Of a stretch of DNA of 64,000 nt, positions 1,669-23,824 are shown piece by piece. Position 1 is the stretch's first letter, and every line of letters begins with the position of its first letter. Origin of the DNA: an uncultured Bacteroidaceae bacterium. GTDB taxonomy: Bacteria; CAIWAD01. A program made the position numbers and the translations under genes. Below the pieces are notes generated by a model that made no database searches, was not told where the DNA came from, and worked only from the letters and a program-made list of their open reading frames with translations. The DNA lies in NCBI GenBank assembly GCA_964345075.1, contig CAYFPS010000015.1:561-64560 (forward strand). The letters run 5' to 3'.

Positions 1669-6444
<4,776 letters not shown>

Positions 6445-6448
<4 letters not shown>

Positions 6449-9114
6449 GAGCAGTACCTCCCGGAAGTCAATTCAGGATCTGCTGAACCAAAGGTTGACT
6501 CTGAAGCTCGCTGGTCAGCTGCACGCAGGAGGGCCTCCAGCCAGGCGAGGTGAAAGGGGCCATAACGGTCAATCAGGCTGTCCACCCGTTCACGCCATGA
6601 GGGACCCGTTCTGGCACTAAGACCAAGGGTAGACAGTGAAAGGTCAACGACAAGCTCTGGCAGCTTGCAAGGATCTCCACTTGTATCACAGATCCTCAGC
6701 GCCGGGAGAATGTCACCATCTTCAATGCCGCGGAGCCGGGGCTTCTCAACCTGATTCTGCTGGTCAGCTGGACATGGATTCCAGGCTGCGCGCAGCTTGC
6801 CATGATGAGCACTAACGAGATAAGCCACCATATTGAAGTCTTCTTCGCCCAGGTCGAGTAGCTCCTGCTCCGCCGTGCATGGTTGGCTACTCGCCAAAGT
6901 GACTGGGGTAGCTTCCCCGCAGCTCGCAAGCAGATCGATCCATGGCCCAAGCAATGCGGGATGATCGGGTCTGTGTCTGTGCAGGACTTCGAACAGGGCC
7001 AGCACGCTAAGCAACTCGTGGCGGAATCCTGGTCGGTGCCCGCCATCAATCATTGGATAGAGCGCCCTGCCTCTCAGCCAGGCAGATGCTGGTGCCTTCG
7101 CCAAAAGGTGCCCTATGGGCCGGTCTGGATGGACCATGGAATCCTGAAATGCAGAAAAGGCTTTACCCGCATCATGCCACCGCCCGGCAATAGAGAGATT
7201 CATGGATTGCGCGGGTATCAGCTGATCGGCAATCTGGCTCGCCAGCTCGCCAACTTCCTTTCCATGAAAGGAAATCGTCTTCCAGCTACGCTCGCTAAGG
7301 CCTTCATCGTCCTGGAATCGATCGGATGTATACGGCTCTACTGGTCTTTCAGAAACAACCTGCACTGTATCACGGGATGTGGCCGTCCAGCCGGCATCTG
7401 TTTTGTAACCGCCACAGGAGGCATCCAGGCGAATGACTACGCCTGCGCGAATGTGGCGTCGTTGCAGCTTCTGCCATTTACCATCCAGCCAATCCCAATG
7501 CCAGGCAAGCATCTTGTCCTTCAAATGCGGTGAGCGCTTTGTGGAACTTTCCTTGCCACAGAGCCAGTCAGCCAGATGATGCACTGGAACCGTGCACAGC
7601 TCGCTACGCTGGACCATGTCTGGCTGATTCAGCTCCTCAGGGGGGCCGGACCGCCAGTAAATTTGCGCATCACGAGCATCCTGCTTTCGAATGAAGCGGG
7701 CGATATCAATGTCAGCCCCTGACAAGTCTGGCGTAGTATCGAAGAGTTCAACAATCTCATCCCTCGTGATCACCTGATCTGGCTCATAGGGATAGAGGCG
7801 TGATACAAGCTCTGGGTGATCCTGTTCAAGAGTTTCCAGCGAGGATGGATCTGCTGCAGAAAGTAGCCCCAGCGCTTCGCGGGAAGCAGCCAACGCTTCT
7901 GGTGTGTAGGGTGCCGAGAGTTTTTGTGTGTCAAAGCCCGGGTCAAGAACGAGAATCCGCCCGCGTCCACCCCAGCGAGCGCAGCGACCAAAGCGCTGCA
8001 CCAGGTTAGGCCATGGCGCAAGTTCGGTAACTAGTGTAGCGGCGGATAAGTCAACCCCTGCTTCCACAATCTGTGTGGATATCAGAATCCGGTCTGTACC
8101 TGCACTACAGGCCTTTTTATCAAACAGATCATCACGCCAGTGGTACCGTTCTGCGGGGCGAAAACGGCTATGAACCAGCTTGATCTCCGTTTGTTCAATG
8201 CGGGCATGCGAAAGCAGTGATGAGTAAAGAGCAACCGCACGATCAACACGATTGACAACTACCAGAGTCGGGCCAGATTTTCCACTTCCAGAATCCTTGT
8301 GAGCCTGTAAGACACGCTCGGCAAATTGAGCTTCGGGTGTCGCTTCTAACTGCAGCTCTTTTTGACAGGCTTGCCAAAGCGGGCTTGTACGGTCCCCCTC
8401 GGCAAGCCCCTTCGCCTTCAAACCAGAAAAGCACTTCCTGGCCTCTGGCGTGCCCTTCAACCATGCCTCTTGCAGTGTCGCGCTCATCCACCAGCTACGA
8501 ACTGGACGCCCGGCAGGCCATTCTTTACGAAATGATTGAAGTTGAGCACTGGTGGCCAGTCCAGCATCCATCAGCTGCACTTCATCCAGAACCCAGAGCG
8601 CGTCCTGATTCAACAGACCAAACTGCATGGGCCACCGAGCGCGAGAGGCTGCATAGCCGCGGTTAAGTGCCCGGGAAAGCAGCATATCCTGTGTGCCCAC
8701 AAGAACCGCAGGTCGCTCGGGAAATTGGTCCCACTGGCCCGCATCCTCACCACCCATTAAAATGTGTACCGAAGCACGGTTGGCCTCGTTGGAATCCGGA
8801 TTGCGTAACAGATTGGTTCTTGCAAGGGCGGATTCAATTTCAGCTGCTGTCTGCTCCACGAGAACACGCATGGGCAAGCACCAAACAAGTCTGTGCGGCC
8901 AGCGCTCGTCATTCCGTTTCAGGCGGTGCCAGGCCCATGCAGAAGCAACACCAAGCGTTTTACCAAAGCCTGTCGGAATTCGAAGTAGAAGATCTTCGCA
9001 AGCCTCTTCAGATATCAGGTCGGCTTGCCAGGGATGTGGAGTATGGCCGGAAAACGAAGTGAAAAATGACCGGGGATCATCCATGCTCAGTTCCTTTATA
9101 ATGTCTCGGCTCAA
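6445..9114 (-). CDS. cas3: Type I-G Cas3 helicase-nuclease with C-terminal HD domain
   Basis: SF2 motifs IPTGFGKT, VLDEVQL, MSAT, HSRF, STQIVEAGVD and QRFGRCAR, followed by HD motifs RWHDAGKA, RHE, AHHGK and AAD. A C-terminal HD is characteristic of I-G. An AAGGAA RBS suggests the start may be the ATG at 9084. Confidence 0.95.
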
Positions 9115-9322: not shown

Positions 9323-9511
9323 TTAGCGCCAGAGAAGTGGAAGCGCGGCCAGTAGCAGTCCACCGCCAATTCCCACCAGAGGATTGGGAGCAAAATTAGC
9401 CCGCAGCAATAGACCAACGGCGCAGATCGTGGGTAGAATGGCCTGCTGTTTTCGACCGTAAATCAGATAGGCCGTGCCAAAGAGGCCAAGCAGGAATTTG
9501 ATCAGGATCAT
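9323..9511 (-). CDS. Small two-helix membrane protein (62 aa)
   Basis: MILIKFLLGLFGTAYLIYGRKQQ...ALPLLWR. ATG at 9511 overlaps the upstream TGA (ATGA). The ORF-track start at 9625 is probably too long. Confidence 0.6.
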   Translation of the reverse strand: MILIKFLLGLFGTAYLIYGRKQQAILPTICAVGLLLRANFAPNPLVGIGGGLLLAALPLLWR

Positions 9512-10440
9512 CCCCGCACCCCACGCTTCACCAGCGCTTTCAAATGCTCTTCTCCCGTGCCGCAGCAGCCACCGATAATCGGCAGCTCCAAAGCCTGATG
9601 CAGGGCGAAAAGCTCGCTGGCCCAAAGCTCCACATCTTCAGACAGAAGGGTCCTGGCATCATTCAGTGCTGCGTGGTCAAGTGAGCTGGCATTGGCCTGA
9701 AAGCCGATCAGGCGCTGCCGGGTGCTGGCGGGAATCTCTTCTGCTTTCAGAAAACCCGGCCAGGCGCAGTTGACCATGTAACCCAGCGGCTTCATCGTGC
9801 TGGCAATGTCGCAGGCATCCACGGCATCGGGCAGGGGGGTACCATCCAGCAGGCAGCCGTCGGATCCGATCACAAAACTCGTGATACACTCATGGCCTGT
9901 ATCACACATGGCCAGCGTCATGCCGATGGCTTCCGGCAATGCCGGCATGGTTTGTGCCACCAGAAGATCACATCCACCAGCACATAGTTCTTCCGCCTGC
10001 CAGTGGTGCACGCTTCGTGCATCATCGGTGGAGAGACCTTCTTCGGGCCGGTAGGCATCCTTCGCGCAGCCAAGCAGGCCGGCCAGCAGGACGGGTGGCT
10101 GCCCGGCAGGCAGTTCATCTAACTGTCTGCGCAAGATTCTGCAGAGCTGCCGGTTGATGTCCTCCGGCGCGCCGGCAGCCTTCACACGCTCCCGGGATAG
10201 CCGCCAGCTTGGCGTGAGCAGCATCATGGGAAGTGATGCCTGCCGCGCAACTTCCAGATACGCCTTCTGCAGCTACCAGATGGCTTCACGCCCGGTGGGA
10301 TCCAAAAGCAACAGGCCGTGCTCCAGCGTGGGATCAAGTGGCAGGTGAACTTCGCGGCGCAGGCGCTCCAGCACAGCGGCCTCAGTCAACACAAGGCGAT
10401 GTGCTTCAAGCAGTCTGCTGGCAGTAGCTGGAACAGTCAT
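9508..10440 (-). CDS. Homocysteine S-methyltransferase family protein with an in-frame TAG at codon 56 (10273-10275)
   Basis: Zn-ligand motifs GYMVNCAWP and IIGGCCGT, plus LLVAQTMP. The frame continues upstream of the track ORF through EAIW*LQKAYLEVARQASLPMMLLTPSWR to ATG 10440 (MTVPATASRLLEAHRLVLTEAAVLERLRR). Confidence 0.8.
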
Positions 10441-11931: not shown

Positions 11932-12723
11932 ATGAAGACTTTAACCGTCAATCACGACAAGCACCTTGCGCTGGTGACCCTGAACCGGCCCGCCCTGCGC
12001 AATGCACTGAATGATGAGCTGATTCGCGAACTGCGCGAACTGGCGGAGGCGCTTAACGCGGATGCTTCGGTTCGCGCCGTGATCCTGACCGGCTCGGGCA
12101 AGGCCTTCTGCTCCGGCATGGATCTGGCCTACATGGAAAGGCTGGCCAGTTTTGATGAAGCGGAAAACCGCCGTGACACAGAGAATCTGGTCGCGCTCTT
12201 CGAGGCGATCCGCTTCGGAAGACTGCCCTGGATTGCCGCCGTCAACGGACCGGCAATCGCCGGCGGCTGTGGTCTGGCCAGTGTCTGTGATCTGGTGCTG
12301 GCTGATCGCGTCAATGCGCGCTTCGGCTACCCGGAAGTCAAGATCGGCTTTCTTGCAGCTGTTGTATCACCGTTGCTATTGGCCCGCGTGGGCGAAACAC
12401 ACACGCGGGATCTGCTGCTTACCGGCCGCATCATCAAGGCCGAAAGCGCTCAGGCTATGGGTCTGATCAATGAGCTCTCGGAAGAAGGTCAGGTGCTGGC
12501 ACTGGCGGGCATGCGCGCCCGTGCGCTGATTCAGCAGTGCAGCCCGGACAGCATAGCCGCCACCAAGGAGCTTTTGGACACACTTCCCGGCATGAACCTG
12601 CGCGCGGCATTTCGCGCGGGGCTTGACCGCAATGTCGCCTCCAGGCTGTCGCCATCCTGTCGCCGTGGGCTGCGCGCCTTTCTGGACAAGGAAAGCGTGG
12701 ACTGGAGTCAGGACCCTGCCTGA
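11932..12723 (+). CDS. Enoyl-CoA hydratase/isomerase family (methylglutaconyl-CoA hydratase-like)
   Basis: LNRPALRNALN, GKAFCSGMDL, AIAGGCGLASVCD and GYPEVKIG crotonase motifs. Confidence 0.88.
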   Translation: MKTLTVNHDKHLALVTLNRPALRNALNDELIRELRELAEALNADASVRAVILTGSGKAFCSGMDLAYMERLASFDEAENRRDTENLVALFEAIRFGRLPWIAAVNGPAIAGGCGLASVCDLVLADRVNARFGYPEVKIGFLAAVVSPLLLARVGETHTRDLLLTGRIIKAESAQAMGLINELSEEGQVLALAGMRARALIQQCSPDSIAATKELLDTLPGMNLRAAFRAGLDRNVASRLSPSCRRGLRAFLDKESVDWSQDPA

Positions 12724-13054
12724 GCCATTCGGCAAGAACCAAAGACCAGTCGATAACACCCATCAACTGTCTGGAAAAGCACACAGACTCACCTGCTGTA
12801 TCATTTCTCATACAAGTGTATGGCTGTTGAGCGGCCGAGAGCTTGACAAGTCTGCCACCGAAACGCCCAACTAAAGCCTGATCAAAACAGAAGTTAAGGT
12901 CTGGCAGAGCTGGCACTATCCTTGCATTTCAGCTTGCAGCTTGAAGCACTGATTTCCCGTGATCGCATTGGATCTACCTGAATCGATGCAATTGATGTGT
13001 GCGCCCCACTGCTTCGTACACTTCGCTTCAATTCGTGTGTGAAAGGGCTAAATC

Positions 13055-15858
13055 ATGCGTGCATTTTCCTTGTTGATTACGGTTCTGCTCACAGCCTTAC
13101 AGCTTTCCGCCGGAACCATCCATCCCGGGATTGAAAAGCTCCTGCTTGAAACGTCAACCAATGACGAGATCGGGGTGATTGCCTTCCTCAAAGACAGGCC
13201 GGACATCGCCCGGCTGGACGAAGAGCTGCGCCACGGGAAAGCAAGGCTGGCCGACCGTCACACCCGCGTGATGACCGTGTTACAACAAGCCGCCAATCGC
13301 AGTCAGCCGGCCCTCGTGCAGGTCCTGGATGGCTGGCGGGCCAGCGGGCATATCACGGACTACAAAACTCACTGGCTCGTGAATGCAATCACCATCATCT
13401 GCCCGGCAAGTGAGGTCAATCAGCTCTCGCTGCTGCCGGAGATCGACGCGCTGGAGGCATTGCCGGAAATCGAGATCATTGAGTCTGAGAGCACAAATCG
13501 CGATGGGGAGAGAGATGTCTTTGAGGGCCTCTCGCCTGCCCTGCACTTCATACAGGCCGATCGTGTCTGGTATGAGCTGGAATTGCTGGGCGAAGGCGTG
13601 GTGCTGGCAAATCTCGGATCGGGAGCGAATTTTACCCATGAGTCCTTGTTTTCAAGCTGGCGCGGACATTATGCGCCAGTAGAAGAGTGTTGGCGGGACG
13701 CAGCAGGTTATGGACCCTTCCCTTATGACTGTGGCTATGGTCGAGGAACTCATGTCACGAGCCTGCTTGTGGGCGTCACAGAATCAGACACAACCGGCGT
13801 ATGCCCGGGCGCCCGCTGGATCTCTTCCCCGCTAAGTTTGGGCGATGGTCAATTGTTTATCGATGATGCCCTTGAATCTCTCGAATGGATAGCAGACCCG
13901 GATGGCAACCCCTGGACTCTGGATGATGTGCCGGATGTGGTGCTCAACGATTGGAATCTGAGCTCCTTTGACGCTGAAGAACAATGCAGCTCGCTCTGGT
14001 GGGAAGCCATCGACAACTGCGAGGCCATGGGCATTTGCATGATCTTCTCCGCGGGCAATGAAGGAGAAGCAGGCATCACCAATCCTGCCTCAAGGGCAAC
14101 GAGTCCCACGAGCTCTTTCTGTGTTGGCGCCTGTGATACAACGGGAACCGAGATGGCTTCCTTTAGCAGCAGGGGACCTGTGCCTGAAGCTTGCGGTCCT
14201 TACAGCATCAAACCGGAAATCACGGGGCCGGGAATTGATCTTCCCGGGGCTCACGTTTTTGTTGTAGATGCGTATCTCTGGCGCAGCGGAACCAACATGG
14301 CGGCCTCGCTGGTGGCTGGTGTTGCCGGCCTGATGCGGAATGCAGACCCGGATATTGATGTGACCAGCATCAAGGAAATCCTGATGGAAACGGCCCTTGA
14401 TCGTGGCGAGCCCGGCGAAGACAATGAGTGGGGACACGGCTTTGTAGACGCCTATGCAGCAGTACAGGCATGCATGGGTGGAAACGGCTTTGTTCAAGGA
14501 TACATGCTCGACGAGCAGACAGGCAACGGGATTGCCAATGTTCGTATCACGGCACCCGCCCTTGGCCGTATCACAGCGACCGATGCCGATGGAAGCTTCA
14601 GCCTTGTTCTGCCTTCCGGCAGCCATCAACTGCGCACTGATTCCTTTTTTCACCTGGATCACGAATGGACTGAAACAATCATTGGAAACCAGCAGAACAA
14701 TGTCCTGATAGGACTTAGTCCCCATGCAACAAGAGAGATCACGGGGCTGGTCACCATGCCGGATGGCACTCCCAGAGAGGGCGCGCGAATCAGTATTCCA
14801 GAATCACCACTGGACCCGATCGAAACCATGGTGGATGGTGAGTTCGCCTTTACTCTGCCCCTGGACAGGGACTACCAGCTAGTCGTTGAAAACATTGGTC
14901 CAGCTGGCCGGATGCCGCTCGGGCCCGACAACTATGGATATGCTGCGCTTGATCCTAACGATTGGGCAAGCCGCAGTATCGACTTCCTCTGGATGAAGAC
15001 ACGCCATCCATCCTTGTCAGCACCGGTCACACCATTCAATATGACTGGCAGACGATTGACCCTGATGTTGGTGGCCCGGGCACGGCGCTGGACTTCTCAT
15101 CAGGTGCCAATGTGACACAGCTGATTGATCTGCCCTTCCCCTTCATGTATTACGGTGAGACCTTTACACAGGCATCCATTTGCAGTAATGGCTGGGTGGC
15201 GCTGGGTGAGACAAGCATGACCACCATCGGAAACGGGGACATCCCGGATCCTGATTATGGCCCGCCCGCCATGCTTGCCGTGTTCTGGGATGGTCTCGCG
15301 CCTTACAACGAGGAAAGTGGAAACATCAGCATGTATCACGACGAAGCGAGTGGACGCTTCATCGTCGAGTACAATCACATTCGGCAACAGATTCCGACTT
15401 CGGCATTTGAAAGCTTCCAGCTGATTCTGCTGGATGAGTCCGTCCATCCCACATTCACGGGCGACGGAGCCATTATCATGCAGTACAGCGAGATCAGTGA
15501 TGCTTCCAGCTGCACGGTAGGAATTGAATCACCGAATGGATCTGATGGCCTGCAGTACTTCAGGACCGATGAGTACCCCTACTTCCCGGTCCCGCTTCCT
15601 GGCACTGTAATCCTCTACACCACAGGCCTGCTGGAAAGCAGTTATCTGCCAGCTATCAGCGACCTTCGTATCACGACTCTCACCGGGCAGCAAATCCGGC
15701 TGGATTGGTCGGCTGTTTTTGGTGTTACGGCTTACCGGGTTGAAGAGTCGGTTGATGGGCAGAGCTGGAGTACGCTTGGTTTTTACCAGGAGCCCGGCTG
15801 CATAAGGTCCACTACAGCTGGAACCCGCTTCTATCGCGTGCGACCTGTGATCGATTAG
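13055..15858 (+). CDS. Secreted S8 subtilase paralogue 1, catalytically degenerate; apparent 1-bp deletion at about 14986
   Basis: Signal peptide, propeptide, S8 fold, carboxypeptidase-regulatory-like repeats, LPFPFMYYG...CSNGW domain and FN3-like tail. The two track ORFs join if one C is added (TTC CCT CTG). Triad positions read NLGSG, GRGTH and SGTNM. Confidence 0.85.
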
Positions 15859-15885
15859 CCAGGCGTGTTTAGCCGTGGAGGAATC

Positions 15886-18718
15886 ATGTCTCGTCTATTA
15901 GCCCCTGTCAGCGGTGTTCTGCTTCTGCTTGCAACCGGACTGCTGGCAGCAAACATTGACGAAGCCGTTCTCGCCAGAATGGAAATGGCCAAACAGGATT
16001 CGGTGATCACTGTCTTGCTCGTACTGGAAGAGCAGGCAGACCTGAGGAGCCTTGATCAAAGCCTGACTGCGCGTAAGGCCAGCCGGGCGGAGCGTCACCG
16101 GGAAGTTATTCGCGTGTTACAAGGAGTTGCAGAACAAAGCCAGTCAGCCCTGCTGGACAATCTGACGCTTCATCGCGAATCAGGTCTGGTCAAGGCTTTC
16201 AAACAGCACTGGCTGATCAATGCTGTTGATGTTACCTGCCGGCCTGATCTGGTCTACCTGTTGGCGGATTTCCCCGGCATCGAGTCTGTTCAGGGCGAAC
16301 TGAATCCCGCACTTGTCAGGCATCCCTGTCAACCGGACAATATGCAGCGTGATACAAGCAGCACTCTGACAACTCCGGCTGCCTTGCAAACCATTGGCGT
16401 GGACCGCGTATGGCATGAACTGGGGATTACCGGCGAAGGAGCATTGCTTGGCTCGATCGATTCCGGTGTCAACATGAATCACGAGTCCATCGCCTCCAAG
16501 TGGCGCGGCTTGCAGGCCCCGGTTGATCAGTGTTGGCGCGACGCTACAGGATACTTGCCGATGCCTTGGGATTGGTTTGGCCGCGGAACGGCAGCGGTTA
16601 GCTTGATGATTGGGATCACACCCACGGATACCATCGGAGTCTGCCCTGATGCAAAGTGGATTGCTTCCAATGCCGACACACCCGGAGTGGCGATTAATGG
16701 TCCCTGGCAGATCGATGCGCTTGAGTGGCTGGCTGAGCCGGACAACAATCCCGAAACCATCGATGATGTCCCCGATGTCGTGCATAACGGCTGGGGTTTC
16801 ATTGGATTTGCAACTTTTGATGTCTGTGATACACGCTGGTGGGAAGCCATCGACAACATGGAGATGCTTGGTGTCTGCACAGTATGGCCGGTTGGCGACG
16901 AAGCAGAAAACCATGGCGACATCCTACTCCCTGCAAGCAGGGCTTCCTCTGAACTGAACGCCTTCTCCACCGGGAGCTGCAACTCGATTGGAAGCGCTGT
17001 GTCCCCCTTTTCCAGCCATGGCCAGGCACAGGAAGAGTGCGGAAGCTTTGCCGGCAAGCCCTGAAGTCATTGCCCCCGGCGAGCACCTCTACACCGCCAA
17101 CGCGGCAAGCGATCATGGCTACATCATGATGACGGGAACGTCTCTTGCCAACGCGCTTGTCGCCGGCGTCTTTGGTTTGATGCGCTCGGCTGACCCGGAT
17201 ATAGAAGTTTCAACCATGAAGCGAATCCTCATTGAAACCTGTCGGGATCTGGGTGATGAGGGTGAAGACGAACTCTGGGGCTGGGGTCTGATCGATGCGC
17301 ATGAAGCATTGGTTGCTGTCTCACAAGGCCTTGGTCATGTACAGGGCACTATTCTTGCCGTGGAGAGTGGACAAGCCCTATCCAATGTGCGAGTGAGTCA
17401 TCCCGCGAGCAATCGCATGACGAGTGCAAACCAGGATGGCTATTACACGCTCCGTCTTCCGGCGGGCCAACAGACCCTGCGCGCCGAGGTTGATGGGTTT
17501 TGCGCACACGAATGGGATGTTGACATAGGCGATCATCTGGTGAGTCCCTGCGACATTCAACTGGAGCGATTGCCCTCAAGAACAGTCGCCGGTCGTTTGT
17601 TGAAATCCAGCGGTGACCCCATAGCGCAGGCACTGGTGACGGCTCCTGGTATTCCTTTTGCCTGTGATACAACCGACAGGGATGGCGCATTTCACTTACT
17701 CCTGCCAATTGGTCAGACCATTCGTATTGTATCACAGACTGACTTTCGCCCGTTTAGTCGTTGTGCGGGACCGGATGAGTACGGCTACATGGCCTTTGAT
17801 CTTGCCGATCAGTCCTCGACAGTCGTTGACCTGGAAGTAACCGAACAGACCGACCAAATCGTTCTTCTGGTCAATCCGCCCTGGGATATAGATGCCCCGC
17901 TGCTTGATCCCGAGGAAGGGGGACCGGGCCTTGCCCTTGACTTTTCTGCCGGTCAGCCCCAGGTTCAGACCCTGCCACTGCCCTTTGACTTCATGTATTA
18001 CGGAAACCCCTATCAGGAGATCAGCATTTGCGCGAATGGGTGGATGGCCATGGGCCATACAAACAGCACGGATCCGACGAACAGTGCGATTCCAGATCCG
18101 GAGGATGGTCCAGCTGCCCTGATCGCCCCCTTCTGGGATGCACTTGCGCCATTTGTACCCGCTTCGGGCTCGATTTCCACGCTACATGACACGCAGTTCA
18201 ATCGCTTCATTATCGAGTTCAACCGGATTCGTCACCATTTGCCCGCCACAGCATTTGAAAGTTTCAGGTTGATCCTGCTTGATCCAGAGTCCTATCCCAC
18301 GCTTTCAGGAGATGGAGCCTTTGTAATGGAGTATCTGGAGATTGGTGATCCATCAAGCTGCACGATTGGAATTGAATCACCTGATGGCAGCATGGGAATT
18401 CAATACCACTTCGGTGACTCGGTGTCCGGCCAGGACGATGCAAACATGCCGCTGCAAAACGGACTTTCCGTCTTGTATACAACAGGGCTCCTTGCTCAGT
18501 CCTACCTGCCGGCACCGACAAATCTTCGTATCACAAATCTCGCCGGACAACGAATCCGGCTGGATTGGTCGGCAATTTTTGGAGCCACCGGTTACAGTGT
18601 GGAAGAGTTGCGGGAGGGCCAGTGGCAGAGGGTGGCGCAGGTGACTGAAAATAGTCATGAAATGCTGCCAAATGCGGGTGTTCATCTTTTCAGGGTGAGG
18701 ACTCTGATTGAGCACTGA
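15886..18718 (+). CDS. Secreted S8 subtilase paralogue 2, catalytic His replaced; apparent 1-bp insertion at about 17060
   Basis: GGAGG RBS then MSRLLAP. The two track ORFs join if AAGCCCTGAA is read as AAG CCT GAA (KPEVIAPG). Motifs read IDSG, GRGTA, VGDE and GTSL. Confidence 0.85.
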
Positions 18719-19071
18719 TCTCCGGGAACTCTTACAGTCCGCCAGAAAAATCGCTGGTATGGGCAACATACAGGGAACCCAAAAGCGGCGACAAAGTACC
18801 TCCCCGGGCGGGTGGGGAGGTGGTGGGTGGGCGAAACCTTCGACCACGGCACATTCTGTATCAACAAAGTGGTGGAGGGCCCGGCCCCTTCACCCTTCAT
18901 TTGTAAAGATTCCCGAACATCCTCGCCAGAGACGTCCATAGAATCGTCCTGGGTCAAGGAACTTATACCCTTGAACAGCAAGCACATTATTTCATACTGG
19001 CCCCATTTCGGAGCGGCCCGATTTTTGCACAATAATGCTGTTTGATCAAAAGGCGAGAAAAGGAGAACGCT

Positions 19072-21918
19072 GTGCGCTTTCGCCCCATTTTATCCCTTGC
19101 TGCAAGCTTGAGCCTTGCTGCACTTGCTTCGGCAGGAACAATTGGTTCCGGGCTTCGCGCCCAGCTGGACGCTCTTCACCCCGGTGACGAGCTGAAGGTC
19201 ATGGTTATTCTGGAAGCCCGGGCTGATGTCGAGCTGCTGGATCAGGCCCTGCGCGAAAAGCGCGCCTCCATGGCTGAGCGACATCTGACCGTCATGCGGG
19301 CGCTGCAAGATGTGGCCGCTGAAAGCCAGCCTGCCGTAACTAGCGAGCTGGACGGCCTGCAGCAGAAAGGCGTCGTCCTGGGCTACACGCCACACTGGCT
19401 GCTCAACGGCATTGTTGTGCGGACACTGGCCTCCGGGGTGCCCGAACTGGCCGCCATCCCCGGTGTGGACGTGGTCGAGGCTGATCTTGTCCCCGAGCTG
19501 ATCGAGCCTGTTCAGGTTGGTGATACAGGCGGCAGGGATAACAGTCGCGAGATCGGCATTACGCCCGGCATTCAGGCGCTGCAGGCCGACCGCGTCTGGT
19601 ATGAACTGGGTATCACGGGTGAAGGTGTGATCGTCGCCAACATGGACACGGGCGTCAACGTGAATCACGAGAGCTTGAGCGCTCGCTGGCGCGGAAACGT
19701 TGCCAATGCCGCTCACTGCTGGTGGGATGCCTGGGGCAGCAGTAGCACGCCCAATGACGGCAACGGACACGGTACCCATGTGATGGGCACGATTACGGGG
19801 CTGGCTTCAGGCGACTCCATCGGTGTCTGCCCGGGTGCGCAGTGGATTGCGACAAATGTGATCGATTCAGGCACGGGGTCGTCCTTTGACAATGCCGTGA
19901 TCGCCGGGTTGGAATGGCTTTCCGATCCCGACAACAATGCCTTTACGGTGGATGACATGCCGGATGTGGTCCAGCACAGCTGGGGTGTCAACGAGAGCTT
20001 CTCCGGTTACACGGACTGTGACAACCGCTGGTGGGAAGCCATTGACAACTGCGAAGCGCTGGGTGTGGTCAACACCTGGTCAGCGGGAAATGAAGGCCCT
20101 TCCGGCAGCACCATGCGCAGCCCGGCCGATCGCGCCATGAGTGCGACCAACTGCTTTTCGGTGGGCAGTTGTAACACAAGCGGTACAACCATCTCCAGTT
20201 TTTCCAGTCGCGGCCCGGCGGGCAACAGCTGCGGCTTTTACAACATCAAGCCGGAAGTTACCGCGCCCGGTGACAACATCTATTCCGCAAATGCCTCCAG
20301 CACCACGGGCTATGTCTACATGAGCGGAACCTCGATGGCCGGCCCTCATGTGGCGGGCGTGGTAGGTCTGATGCGTGGCGCCAATCCAGATCTGGATGTG
20401 CAGAGCATCAAGACCATCCTGATGGAAACCTGTGAGGATCGCGGAACAGCCGGTGAAGACAATATCTGGGGCTGGGGACTGGTCAATGCCTACGAGGCCG
20501 TGCTCGCCGCCTCCAGCGGTTTTGCCGAGATCAGTGGAACGATCACGGCGGAAGACACGGGTGAGGCGCTGGCGGGCATTCTGATTGAAGTGCCAGAAGC
20601 CAATCGCACAGCCACGACTGGAGCAAATGGCCAGTACAGCCTGACCATGCCGGCGGGCGAATTCGAATTCCAGGCCAGTGGTTATGGTTTTGAATCACAC
20701 GCATGGACGGTCTTGCTGGAAAGTCAGGATGTGCTGGTATCCGACCAGAGCCTGAATCGTCTGCCCTCTGCTCTGGTTATGGGGACTGTCCGCGCGCCGG
20801 ATGGATCACCGCTCTCCGAGGCGGTTGTCGAGGCTTTGGGTACGCCGCTTGCCTCCCAGACCACCGATCTGGACGGTCGTTTTCAGTTCCTGCTGCCGGT
20901 CAGTTACGAAGTCACGATCGTCAGCCGGGCCAATGAACTGCCCACCAGCGTGGCGCAGGGTCCTGATGCACATGGCTACTTTGCCTTCGACTCCAGCGAC
21001 TGGGCATCTGTATCACAGACTCTGACCGTCCCGGCAGAGGGCGCCGACCTTGACATGATGTCGACCAACAGCTTCAGCTATGACTGGCAGACGCTCGATC
21101 CCGACGAAGGTGGAATTGGCACTGCGCTTGATTTCAGCGCTGGCGATGACATCACCGTGTTGCAGGACCTGCCCTTCGACTTCATGTATTACGGCAACAG
21201 TTACAGTCAGGTCAGCATTTGCGGAAATGGCTGGGTGGCCTTTGGCAACACGGACGAAACCGATTACAGCAACAGCGCCATCCCGGATGGAACCGACGGC
21301 CCGGCAGCCATGGTGGCGGTCCTGTGGGAAGATTACAGCCCGCAGCAGGAAGTTAGCGGGAACATTTCCGTGTATCACGATCAGGCAGGTGGCCGCTTCA
21401 TCATCGAGTACAATCACATTCGCCAGTACACGCCGATCAGTGCCTTTGAGAGTTTTCAGTTGATCCTGCTGGATCCCGCAGTTCATGAAACCATCAGTGG
21501 TGACGGGGCAATGATCCTGCAGTACAGCGAGATTACAGATACAAGCAGCGCTACAGTCGGAATTGAAAGCCCGGATGCTTCAACAGGCCTGCAGTACTAC
21601 TTCGCAGACAGTGGCGACAATTACGCAGACGAGAATTTGCCGATTGAAGCCGGTGCTGCGATTCTGATTACCACCGGACTGACAGGCAGTTCGCTTCCGC
21701 TAATGCCGGTCACGGACCTTGTCATCGAGCTGCTACCCAACCTGAACCTGCAGCTTGGCTGGACGCCTGCAGCAGGCGCGGTTTCTTACCGCATTGAGGA
21801 AAAGCTTGGTGAAGGCTGGGTTCCGCTGGGTGAGACAACTTCAAGCGAATGGCTGATTGACTACCATCCCGGGGTCGGTCAGTATCGTGTGATCAGCCTG
21901 GCGCCGGACCAGAACTAG
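19072..21918 (+). CDS. Secreted S8 subtilase paralogue 3, intact triad
   Basis: AGGAGA RBS and GTG start. MDTG (Asp), GHGTHVMG (His), SAGNEG (oxyanion Asn) and SGTSMAGPHVAG (Ser). Same downstream domains as paralogues 1 and 2. Confidence 0.92.
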   Translation: MRFRPILSLAASLSLAALASAGTIGSGLRAQLDALHPGDELKVMVILEARADVELLDQALREKRASMAERHLTVMRALQDVAAESQPAVTSELDGLQQKGVVLGYTPHWLLNGIVVRTLASGVPELAAIPGVDVVEADLVPELIEPVQVGDTGGRDNSREIGITPGIQALQADRVWYELGITGEGVIVANMDTGVNVNHESLSARWRGNVANAAHCWWDAWGSSSTPNDGNGHGTHVMGTITGLASGDSIGVCPGAQWIATNVIDSGTGSSFDNAVIAGLEWLSDPDNNAFTVDDMPDVVQHSWGVNESFSGYTDCDNRWWEAIDNCEALGVVNTWSAGNEGPSGSTMRSPADRAMSATNCFSVGSCNTSGTTISSFSSRGPAGNSCGFYNIKPEVTAPGDNIYSANASSTTGYVYMSGTSMAGPHVAGVVGLMRGANPDLDVQSIKTILMETCEDRGTAGEDNIWGWGLVNAYEAVLAASSGFAEISGTITAEDTGEALAGILIEVPEANRTATTGANGQYSLTMPAGEFEFQASGYGFESHAWTVLLESQDVLVSDQSLNRLPSALVMGTVRAPDGSPLSEAVVEALGTPLASQTTDLDGRFQFLLPVSYEVTIVSRANELPTSVAQGPDAHGYFAFDSSDWASVSQTLTVPAEGADLDMMSTNSFSYDWQTLDPDEGGIGTALDFSAGDDITVLQDLPFDFMYYGNSYSQVSICGNGWVAFGNTDETDYSNSAIPDGTDGPAAMVAVLWEDYSPQQEVSGNISVYHDQAGGRFIIEYNHIRQYTPISAFESFQLILLDPAVHETISGDGAMILQYSEITDTSSATVGIESPDASTGLQYYFADSGDNYADENLPIEAGAAILITTGLTGSSLPLMPVTDLVIELLPNLNLQLGWTPAAGAVSYRIEEKLGEGWVPLGETTSSEWLIDYHPGVGQYRVISLAPDQN

Positions 21919-21926
21919 ACGCACCG

Positions 21927-23824
21927 TCAGATACTTTCCTGGGGAGGCTTGTCCTCCCCTTTTTCTTTATCAGCGGGAAAGATCACGGTCAGACAGGTGC
22001 CCACATTCGGCGCGCTGCGAATGGAAATCATTGCGCCATGGCTGCGAGCTATGCCCAGCACGGTGCTAAGTCCCAGTCCACGACCCGTGAACTTTGTAGT
22101 AAAGAAGGGGTCAAAGGCGCGCTTGAGGACTTCCTGCGACATGCCGCTGCCTGTATCACAGACTTCCAGATAAGAGTACTCAGACTGGCTGATGGCGAAT
22201 AGCTGTTCCACCAGGTTCAGTGAATGCGGACGGAAGTCCTTGCGACCGGCCTTGACCTCCACCTTGGGCTCTTCTCCGGCCCCAGTGCGTTTTGCAGCAA
22301 TTGCGCAAGCAGGCGTGTGACAAGATCACGATTTGCCCTGATGAGGGCTTCCGGTTGATTGCAAACCCATGCGACCTGACTTCCATTGCAGAGATGTTTG
22401 AGATCGCGCTTCGCATGACTCAGCAGTTCGCCTATTTCGTGGTTGACGAAACTCACATTGCTCTGGCCAACATAGAGCAGCATCAAACGACTGAGGTCAG
22501 CGAGCTTCATGGCCACTTCGCGAATGCTCTCCAGACCTTCACGTTGTCTCACAGGATCACGCAGTTCATGGCCCATCAATTCGATCTGCCCAAGCTGCAC
22601 GGTCAGCAGGTTGTTGAAGTGATGCGCAACGCTACCCGCCATGGTTTGCAGGCTATCCATGCGACGCCGTTCCTGCTGATCAAGCTCGGCCGCCAGCTTT
22701 TCTGTTTGGTGCTTCTGTGTCACATCGAAGATGATGCCGTCAAGCACGGTTCGGCCTTTGTCCTTCCGCTTGGACGCACGACCGATTTCCCGCACATGAT
22801 GCACGCCTTCTGCCGTGTGTAACACACGGTATTCAATATCCCAGTTCCGATTCTCGGCCATGGCGTGCTCGATGGAAAGGCGAACATAGTCCCGGTCCGC
22901 GGGATGTATCACACTGTTGTAATCCGTACTGCCGTCAAGAAAAGCCGACTGTTTCAGTCCCGTGATTCCTTCAATGGCATCGGAGATATGCAGCATGCTC
23001 CAGGCCTGATCGTCATGGCAGGAATAGATGACCACAGGGCTGCGGCTGGTAATCAGTTTGAGGCGATCGCGTTCCAGCGTCAGGTTGTTTAGAGCCTCGT
23101 GCACGGACTGGGCCAGCTGCCCGATCTCGTCTGGAGCAAAGGTGTAGTCGTGGCGCTCAATAATGCTTTGGCCGTGTTCGTGTAGGTGCTGAAGGGACTT
23201 TTTGAGCGGATGGATCACAATGAAGTGCATCATCGTTCCAAGGCCAACAAGAAGCAGAATGACCGTTACGCTACGGGCAATCAGAAAGACCCGCTTCAGC
23301 TCGCCCTTCTGGCTGTTCATGCGAGTCGGATCAGCAATCCAGACCATCCAGAGAATGTTCTGCGTGTGATCGCCGGAATCAAGTAGCGAGCTGCCAGCAT
23401 CCACCTTCATGGCAATCGGTGTGGTTGTGTGTTCGCGGCCGGCCTGAATGGTATGGATCACGAAGGGAGCCCACTCGTGCTTCAATTCATCCAGCTTGCA
23501 CCCAATCAGGTGCAGTTCATTGGCAGCCAGGATCTGCAGGTCATCCGGACTGACCAGTAGAAGCTGATCCAGAAAGGGACTGCCCCCTGCAACACTGATG
23601 TACTGCTGCACCTGGCTCATGTGATTCATCGCGCCTATTGCGTACACGGCCGAAAGCGCCGAGCTGCGATCACGCACTGAGACATTCTCGTTAATCCAGC
23701 GATCCAGGCTACCCTGCACCAGAAAAACGGCGATATGGGTGGCAACCAGCAGCAGAAGGATGGTTGGAAGGAAAATCTTGACGCGAATGCTGCCACGCAC
23801 GCGGCTGTAAATCGACCGGATCAC
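21927..23824 (-). CDS. PAS-domain sensor histidine kinase; apparent 1-bp deletion at about 22282
   Basis: Two TM segments, PAS (IHPADRDYV, EYRVLH), H-box VAHHFNNLL and N-box LLQNAL. The G1/F/G2 boxes (CDTGSGM, DPFFTTKFTGRGLGLS) lie in the adjacent frame. Confidence 0.85.

Follow-up and report, generated by a model that had tools for sequence, protein, structure and literature searches.

The question that this locus raises is whether two protease genes that have lost catalytic residues and, in this assembly, their reading frames are pseudogenes or still encode useful proteins. The window, by which we mean the whole stretch of 64,000 nucleotides that was analysed, carries three tandem S8 subtilase genes on one strand between positions 13055 and 21918, here called P1, P2 and P3. 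We consider it likely that P1 and P2 are pseudoenzymes derived from P3 and not pseudogenes, under relaxed but real purifying selection, and that they make up an accessory array on which P3 does not obligately depend.

P3 (19042-21918, forward strand, like all features below) is an intact subtilase of 958 amino acids with a complete Asp/His/Asn/Ser set (Pfam PF00082, E = 7e-48). P1 is split in two: its first segment (13055-14986; ORF plus Pfam PF00082/PF13620) is a pseudo-subtilase with signal peptide, I9-like prodomain, dead S8 domain and two CarboxypepD_reg domains, and its second (14989-15858) encodes a NIDO-like domain and an Fn3-like tail, with a translation collinear with P3 residues ~660-958. 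P2 is split within the S8 domain: the segment at 15865-17061 (ORF plus Pfam) holds the signal peptide, the prodomain and the greater part of the dead S8 domain, and that at 17063-18718 holds the remainder, the two CarboxypepD_reg domains, the NIDO-like domain and the Fn3-like tail. ORFs and Pfam thus bear out the single architecture that the initial annotation gave to all three paralogues, the signal peptides being called by eye only. P1 and P2 are 43-46% identical to P3 over the full length, and against a curated PF00082 cutoff of 21.8 bits P3 scores 164, P1 88, P2 39 and 48 in its two pieces, and the orthologues P0005 and P0002 82 and 100. The NIDO model PF06119 has no direct Pfam match to the P3-type C-termini even at E <= 5; hhalign aligns them with the PF06119-bearing region of a related class of about 1215 amino acids (P0027 residues 916-974) at a probability of 100% and E = 1.7e-52, and likewise links the second segment of P1 to the NIDO-annotated region. 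P2 starts 6 nt downstream of the P1 stop, and P2 and P3 are 323 nt apart. A consensus scan alone places a terminator-like hairpin with a T-rich tail in this gap (18871-18894), and another, GGGGAGGCTTGTCCTCCCC followed by a T run, 3' of P3 (21941-21959). P1 and P2 would form a transcription unit of their own, ended by the predicted hairpin ahead of P3.

Catalytic residues were assigned by alignment to solved subtilases and to 22 + 119 homologues; PDB subtilases match P3 at E = 1e-30, and their catalytic motifs line up with those of P3. In P3 the residues D202, H243, N350 and S431 are encoded by intact codons at 19645, 19768, 20089 and 20332. P1 has Gly (GGA, 13616), Arg (CGA, 13742) and Asn (AAC, 14294) in place of the triad and retains the oxyanion Asn (AAT, 14057), whereas P2 retains Asp (GAT, 16459) and Ser (TCT, 17141) and has Arg (CGC, 16582) for His and Asp (GAC, 16897) at the oxyanion position. 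The triad and oxyanion Asn that define an active S8 protease are thus present in P3 and incomplete in P1 (G/R/N/N), in P2 (D/R/D/S) and in the orthologues P0005 (GRNA) and P0002 (DRDS). The 22 + 119 homologues read DHNS without exception, and among these ~140 proteins no loss of a catalytic residue was found outside the P1/P2 group. The substitutions lie at exactly the codons given by the initial annotation, which also had P3 intact; its argument that multi-base codon changes exclude read errors is weak, because one non-synonymous and one silent change yield the same codons.

Losses at family-invariant positions concentrate in the four catalytic motifs. GTSMAGPH has been degraded to GTSLANAL, and G249 and T250, the neighbours in the His motif, are altered as well. 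The dead copies still have 66-72 of the 97 invariant positions in the S8 domain and 16-17 of the 17 outside it, the single exception being a prodomain position in P1. The paired cysteines, described earlier as kept, are kept only in part: the conserved 326/337 pair is broken in P2 by the loss of Cys337, and Cys371 is absent from both dead copies. The P1 Ser site is Asn in the window and Ala in the orthologue, which speaks for an unconstrained residue there.

P1 and P2 group together within the P3 orthologues in the tree, and appear to have arisen from the P3 gene by lineage-specific tandem duplication and to occur only within a narrow clade. P3 orthologues (52-67% identical) are single-copy in all other genera checked and in the relative L054; the free tree places the duplication before the split from L054, and the alternative is not rejected (AU test, p = 0.16). 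Five changes, T203S, H243R, G249S, T250L and H436L, are common to P1, P2 and both orthologues. Because the His to Arg change and the four others are shared, catalysis was lost before P1 and P2 separated, and the order of events is fixed: His was lost first, duplication followed, and the further losses came last. A duplicate of the active P3 gene would first have lost catalysis through His to Arg and the four neighbouring active-site changes; this dead ancestor would then have duplicated again, after which P1 lost Asp and Ser and P2 the oxyanion Asn. As the His to Arg change is shared and derived, both genes have stayed open for ~0.9-1.1 substitutions per site since catalysis was lost. Branch lengths after the duplication are ~1.4-1.6 substitutions per site for P1 and P2 compared with 0.47 for P3, so that the dead copies evolve about three times faster.

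Full-length intact orthologues of the pair, P0005 (934 aa) and P0002 (943 aa), stand in tandem on the metagenome contig L052, and the dead residues recur in the orthologues on contigs L050-L052. The initial annotation had singled out the conservation of the dead-plus-active arrangement as a check: the dead pair is found in tandem on L052, and the other genera checked and L054 carry only the single P3 orthologue. The dN/dS comparison proposed at the same time gives values far below 1, namely 0.35 for P1 (CI 0.28-0.43) and 0.25 for P2 (CI 0.19-0.33), about five times that of P3 (0.058). Omega >= 1 is rejected for both genes at p < 1e-17, with bootstrap confidence intervals below 0.45. A comparison of P1 with its counterpart in the close strain X1 yields 0.38, and the range of 0.25-0.38 holds at deep (dS ~0.25) and shallow (dS ~0.085) divergence alike. 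Between the window and L052 there are 368 substitutions in P1 and 259 in P2; if ~4% of random substitutions make a stop codon, ~15 and ~10 stops would be expected without constraint, and no allele has an in-frame stop over its ~940 codons. Three marks of a pseudoenzyme are found here: homology to an active enzyme, dead residues conserved in orthologues and purifying selection after the loss of catalysis. This supports the reading that P1 and P2 would be protein-coding pseudo-proteases that are maintained, or were until very recently, and are not decaying. None of the RNA runs searched for the locus holds it.

The frameshifts have to be set beside this. In P1 the -1 site, GAC TTC C^T CTG (14984-14990), separates the ORFs 13055-15115 and 14962-15858; it lacks an A after 14987 that is present in other strains (X1, X6 and X18) and in L052, where the sequence runs in frame through ...IDFHLDED.... 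In P2 the +1 site, CCC TGA (17059-17064), separates the ORFs 15865-17064 and 16988-18718; other metagenomes have CC, base 17059 being omitted in X5 (99.6% identical), X6 and X18, and the orthologues on L050-L052 are in frame as GKPEVVAPG. Because other metagenomes have in-frame sequence, both frameshifts are best read as consensus errors or very recent null alleles. Real frameshifts near 14986 and 17060 had been named at the outset as a sign of decaying duplicates; they are indeed present in the sequence, but they are private to this assembly, with in-frame alleles elsewhere. P1 has further private indels, a T inserted after 14507 in X1 and a 1-nt deletion in L050. A Pfam check of four more pairs of overlapping ORFs in the window identified them as separate genes and showed no further frameshift; a genome-wide count of overlapping frames gives no frameshift rate, as stop-to-stop frames overlap everywhere.

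The array also varies between strains. An identical 17-nt repeat, CCGGCTGGATTGGTCGG, lies in the tail of P1 (15696-15712) and in that of P2 (18556-18572) and is a point of recombination and of contig breaks. The X1 contig fuses 15715 to 18576, giving a P1::P2 recombinant that has lost one repeat unit, so that P3 is present there with a single hybrid dead copy. Contigs of X6, X15 and X18 break at 15693-15704 and at 18546-18553, and in these three metagenomes the P1/P2 contigs are covered at only about one third of the depth seen for P3 and for the core genes that flank the array (P3 at 2.5-3x). The P1/P2 array is thus an accessory, strain-variable feature that differs between co-occurring strains.

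These data could also be taken to mean that P1 and P2 are redundant duplicates on their way out, in which the loss of catalysis is now being followed by a build-up of frameshifts and deletions and the frames are open only for want of time. A frameshift in both genes of this genome, the independent P1 indels in X1 and L050, the recombinant with a deleted unit, the reduced depth of the pair in X6, X15 and X18, the threefold faster protein evolution with its loss of conserved cysteines, and relatives that get by with P3 alone all agree with such a course. We nevertheless regard it as rather unlikely: dN/dS is significantly below 1 at both depths of divergence, no allele has an in-frame stop despite ~1 substitution per site since the shared inactivation, intact alleles are known for both genes, and each disruption is private to one assembly, a pattern that errors or young deleterious alleles should give and fixed decay should not.

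A second alternative is that all three products form one secreted hetero-oligomeric protease complex in which the dead subunits serve P3 as scaffolds, inhibitor decoys or substrate-binding arms. The three genes are adjacent, on the same strand and identical in domain architecture, and there is a precedent in Clostridioides difficile, where CspC and CspA bind small molecules, heterodimerise into a tight complex and control the active CspB, with which they act (PMC12880746, PMC13434707, PMC7200643). Dimerisation occurs in some subtilases (PMC7200643). Against this, all other genera and L054 have a single P3 orthologue, P2 and P3 are separated by 323 nt and a terminator-like hairpin, P3 has 2.5-3 times the depth of P1 and P2 in three metagenomes, and X1 makes do with one hybrid dead copy. 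The depth excess and the hybrid mean that any interaction with P3 is therefore facultative; an obligate complex is unlikely because the P3 orthologues work alone in all other genera checked. We hold the complex as a whole to be doubtful.

It is very improbable that P2 or P1 still hydrolyses substrates through a non-canonical active site. P2 does retain Asp199 and the Ser of GTS, and its oxyanion residue is Asp, as at this position in the sedolisins (S53). Sedolisins, however, need Glu in the place of the general base, which is Arg in P1 and P2; the Ser motif and G249 and T250 of the His motif are altered, and P1 lacks all three triad residues. Programmed frameshifting, with P2 read by a +1 shift at CCC_UGA and P1 by -1 slippage, was rejected with near certainty: although CCC UGA, a shift-prone motif in which a slippery Pro codon followed by a stop allows +1 frameshifting, sits precisely at the P2 frame junction, the site is not conserved (in X5, X6, X18 and L050-L052 a single frame runs through AAG CCT GAA), an X XXY YYZ heptamer is missing from the P1 site, where four further data sets are in frame, and orthologues and other strains are thus single-frame at both sites.

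If P1 and P2 are maintained pseudoenzymes, as we favour, their signal peptides would direct their export, and each would fold with its own I9-like prodomain, which it would be unable to cleave off by itself; the prodomain would stay attached or be trimmed in trans by an active paralogue. They may act by binding, through the degenerate substrate cleft, through the CarboxypepD_reg, NIDO-like and Fn3 modules, or both, as a probably co-transcribed pair of non-catalytic binders or modulators at the cell surface or outside the cell. By analogy, we speculate that the two might form a non-catalytic heterodimer, an extracellular equivalent, in a Gram-negative bacterium of the FCB group, of CspC:CspA, that captures or senses a ligand via the dead cleft and NIDO-like modules, gates or targets P3 and is strain-polymorphic under fluctuating selection; in this specific form the idea is unlikely. 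Its ligand could be a protein, peptide or glycan, and the selection could come, for example, from substrate niche or from recognition by phages or grazers.

The Csp proteins are the closest parallel. There too three S8 paralogues are adjacent, one active and two with substituted triads, and the dead CspA and CspC derive from duplication, keep their prodomains, lack autoprocessing and form a functional pair. The origin of P1 and P2 is nonetheless independent, because P1 scores only 15.4 bits against NCBIfam NF040808 (CspC_non_triad), far under the cutoff of 675; P3 scores 37.6 against NF040809 (CspBA), with a cutoff of 1250. The affiliation of the host was deduced indirectly, from a same-family MAG that carries the NCBI label Candidatus Cloacimonetes. 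This host is an uncultured marine bacterium of Gram-negative type and not a spore former, the proteins are secreted and multidomain (CarboxypepD_reg, NIDO-like, Fn3) with ~940 amino acids instead of spore proteins of ~550, His has become Arg where the Csps have Thr, Gly and other changes, and the array is strain-variable. P1 and P2 thus add a new case, evolved independently, to a kind that is already known. Among the studied bacterial pseudoproteases that we found in the literature, which are few, almost all are clostridial Csp proteins.

By their modules all three proteins belong to a family of FCB-group subtilases with prodomain, S8, two CarboxypepD_reg and NIDO-like domains, to which they are 40-67% identical and in which D/H/N/S is intact in each of the 119 other members inspected. 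This family has one class of ~1215 amino acids with a FlgD_ig or Por_Secre_tail T9SS sorting domain, and the P3-type class of ~950, which ends in an Fn3-like domain and has no recognisable T9SS C-terminal domain. Dentilisin of Treponema denticola (PrtP with PrcA and PrcB) is likewise a surface S8 protease in a hetero-oligomer with non-catalytic partners, but PrcA and PrcB are unrelated lipoproteins and not dead subtilases; P3 and P1 match the PrtP model partially, over the conserved Ser-motif region only and far below cutoff. In the regulators c-FLIP (with caspase-8) and the iRhoms a dead paralogue, derived from its active relative and encoded or acting beside it, also works by binding and not by catalysis, c-FLIP being treated in PMC7200643; these folds are unrelated and eukaryotic, and regulation of P3 by P1 and P2 is hypothetical.

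The locus offers an independent, datable case of pseudoprotease evolution, with a single-copy P3 orthologue in relatives and measurable purifying selection on the dead copies. Intact, frameshifted and recombinant alleles are available in nature. The locus could serve to study how the fold of a protease is put to new use in binding, and whether genes of this kind turn into accessory ones. It also calls for caution in annotation: from this assembly alone P1 and P2 would be called pseudogenes, and from intact alleles 'S8 family serine peptidase', and both labels are wrong. One minor observation concerns synonymous divergence, which is 0.24-0.30 for P1 and P2 compared with 0.75 for P3. This had prompted the idea that the P1-P2 cassette had recently introgressed or undergone a sweep, which was not sustained, as the flanking genes themselves diverge by between 6% (SecA) and 18% (PAS kinase).

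The three tandem S8 subtilase genes on the plus strand at 13055-21918 consist of two catalytically dead copies, P1 and P2, followed by P3, which is of the active type. P3 is a single open frame (19042-21918, 958 aa) whose motifs MDTG, GHGTH, AGNEG and GTSMAGPH supply Asp, His, the oxyanion Asn and Ser, as seen by alignment to solved subtilases. In P1, Asp has become Gly (GGA, 13616), His Arg (CGA, 13742) and Ser Asn (AAC, 14294), with the oxyanion Asn kept (AAT, 14057); P2 keeps Asp (GAT, 16459) and Ser (TCT, 17141), and has lost His to Arg (CGC, 16582) and the oxyanion Asn to Asp (GAC, 16897). The initial annotation had described three subtilase paralogues, two of them with lost catalytic residues, and ORFs, Pfam and a codon check bear this out, its catalytic codons in P1 and P2 matching exactly in position and bases. 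P1 comprises two ORFs, 13055-15115 and 14962-15858, offset by a -1 shift at GAC TTC CTC (~14984-14990), and P2 likewise two, 15865-17064 and 16988-18718, offset by a +1 shift at GGC AAG CCC TGA (17059-17064). With these single-base shifts read through, they are 934 and 950 aa long and collinear with P3 from end to end, pairwise identity being 42-46%.

Pfam places a Peptidase_S8 and two CarboxypepD_reg domains in each protein. The ~240 residues C-terminal to the latter gave no match in the Pfam search; hhalign shows them to be homologues (probability 100%, E = 1.7e-52) of the segment bearing NIDO (PF06119) in a larger paralogue class of ~1215 aa with C-terminal FlgD_ig / Por_Secre_tail T9SS sorting domains, and the final ~80 residues look Fn3-like by eye. 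The NIDO-like module is also present in ~20 giant proteins (1200-1960 aa; contigs C1, C2, C5, C9, C11 and C13) of the 3.3-Mb genome assembly G000, to which the window belongs; these form a large family of probable surface proteins, with this region lacking Pfam annotation. A fourth subtilase paralogue (L002, open frame of 1083 aa, triad intact) lies at a contig edge (G000:C13:28-1788) and falls in the longer class (~1100-1200 aa), whose members have a T9SS sorting tail in other genomes.

All four residues, D/H/N/S, are present in 22/22 homologues taken from related genomes and in 119/119 others from a collection of 5.8 billion proteins, and the substitutions in P1 and P2 are highly unusual for the family. 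The dead copies retain 66-72 of the 97 S8 positions that are invariant among 22 aligned active sequences, the lost ones being concentrated around the SWG segment that binds substrate and the four catalytic motifs. Five changes (T203S, H243R, G249S, T250L and H436L) are common to both dead copies and the orthologues of each; P2 no longer has the conserved Cys326/Cys337 pair intact, and neither copy has Cys371.

Selection on P1 and P2 is relaxed but real, as follows from their dN/dS values and the absence of stops. L052, a JGI metagenome contig, carries intact orthologues of P1 (934 aa, 82% identity to the window protein) and P2 (943 aa, 89%) in tandem. Their dead sites agree with those in the window, apart from Ala in place of Asn at the Ser site of P1. 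By the Nei-Gojobori method with bootstrap 95% CI, dN/dS is 0.35 for P1 (CI 0.28-0.43; dS 0.30; p(omega >= 1) 1e-17), 0.25 for P2 (0.19-0.33; 0.24; 3e-23) and 0.058 for P3 (0.042-0.075; 0.75; 1e-119), and within the S8 domain 0.31, 0.24 and 0.02, respectively. The most constrained region of P2 is the NIDO/Fn3 part (0.18), and P1 compared with a much closer strain from metagenome run X1 (1.5 kb, dS 0.085) gives 0.38. Not one in-frame stop occurs in any P1 or P2 allele, where ~15 would be expected from 368 substitutions in P1 and ~10 from 259 in P2 if they were unconstrained. Selection is clearly about five-fold relaxed compared with P3, yet it is present and has persisted after the loss of catalysis. 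A dN/dS near 1 had been proposed as the sign of decay; the values found indicate no decay over evolutionary time, and together with the intact tandem orthologues they support the earlier reading of P1 and P2 as maintained pseudo-proteases. Among the same lineages (window against contigs L050, L052 and L053), dS is about three times as high in P3 as in P1 and P2, and nucleotide identity falls from 88-93% to ~79% on crossing either border of the P1-P2 block.

Both frameshifts are private to the window's assembly. One C of the CCC run at 17059 is missing in the X5 contig (99.6% identical), X6, X18 and L050-L052, and P2 then reads GKP-EVIAPG in a single frame; X1, X6, X18 and L052 have an extra A after 14987, with which P1 reads IDF-H-LDED. 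Programmed frameshifting is excluded, because other strains and orthologues are in frame at these sites. Either the consensus is wrong at these sites, or the null alleles are real and young. Error is favoured by other private gene-breaking differences in the window, such as the in-frame TAG (10273-10275) truncating the minus-strand homocysteine S-methyltransferase gene (ORF 9508-10227), where X1 has T, not A, at 10275, giving AAG (Lys) on the coding strand. Real variation is favoured by a different private insertion in P1 of X1 (+T after 14507) and a private 1-nt deletion in P1 of L050 relative to the near-identical L052. Real frameshifts had been expected to mark decaying duplicates; being private to one assembly, these leave maintenance unrefuted. 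Together with the strain variation, they show that P1 and P2 are dispensable in some backgrounds.

The array itself varies. In X1 one contig runs directly from 15715 to 18576. These two positions are homologous between the gene tails and lie beside a 17-mer that P1 and P2 share without a mismatch (CCGGCTGGATTGGTCGG, encoding RLDWS; 15696-15712 and 18556-18572). The P2 body is not assembled in X1, whereas P1 and P3 are; the X1 strain therefore carries a P1::P2 recombinant and one unit fewer. Contigs of X6, X15 and X18 break at the same repeat, with depths of ~6-15 for P1/P2 contigs against 24-48 for P3 and flanking core genes. The two tails are much more alike than the remaining parts of both genes, so gene conversion between them is possible. 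In the same three runs contig depth is unbalanced across the tail repeat (window 12700-22300), and their dominant strain probably has an additional, more divergent gene body 5' of P3 that is unalignable to the window at >=80%.

The best matches of P1 anywhere are P3 (44%) and then P3 orthologues from other genera (39-42%); a separate P1 or P2 orthologue was found in no other genus of the family. Maximum-likelihood trees place P1 and P2 as one clade beside P3, within the P3-orthologue group, with path lengths since duplication of ~1.4, ~1.6 and 0.47 substitutions per site for P1, P2 and P3. The shared substitutions show the order of events: the common ancestor of P1 and P2 had lost catalysis (His to Arg) ahead of its duplication, Asp and Ser being lost later in P1 and the oxyanion Asn in P2. 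A more distant relative, Logan contig L054 (P3 67% identical), has one subtilase gene, with the same neighbours as in the window (S-methyltransferase, MscS, enoyl-CoA hydratase, subtilase, class-III aminotransferase). The duplication precedes the L054 split in the free tree, but the opposite order is not rejected by an AU test (p = 0.16).

P1 and P2 look like one transcription unit apart from P3, since they are 6 nt apart, and a 323-nt spacer and a terminator-like hairpin (18871-18894) come between P2 and P3; a second such hairpin belongs to P3 itself. In subtilases the prodomain serves as an intramolecular chaperone that the enzyme cuts off by autoproteolysis, a step that catalytic mutants fail to carry out (PMC7200643). 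We infer that P1 and P2 are exported and fold on their own prodomains, which would stay on or be trimmed in trans, and that the two may serve together as non-catalytic binding proteins, on the surface or outside the cell. The hetero-oligomeric protease complex suggested in the initial annotation would be unlikely to be obligate, because P3 stands alone in every relative and outnumbers P1 and P2 in natural populations. The closest precedent is the Clostridioides difficile cspBA-cspC locus, with one active subtilase adjoining two pseudoproteases whose prodomains are retained; these associate tightly as CspC:CspA and control CspB (PMC7200643, PMC12880746, PMC13434707). Architecture, organism and substitutions all differ, and the window genes score 15 bits against the Csp family cutoff of 675: the arrangement is of the same kind but of independent origin. 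A facultative, Csp-like modulatory role of P1 and P2 is possible. As a natural case of how a pseudoprotease originates the locus is a clean one, with a putative function.

The bacterium occurs in seawater, estuary and marine-sediment metagenomes, and a MAG from the same family bears the NCBI label Candidatus Cloacimonetes. Just past the S-methyltransferase gene of the window lies a type I CRISPR-Cas module (4244-9114; Cas3-like helicase ORF 6445-9114), and L054 has a Cas9-like gene (HNH_4, RuvC_III; 1-1661) at the same position, so that the defence module is swapped at a conserved site.
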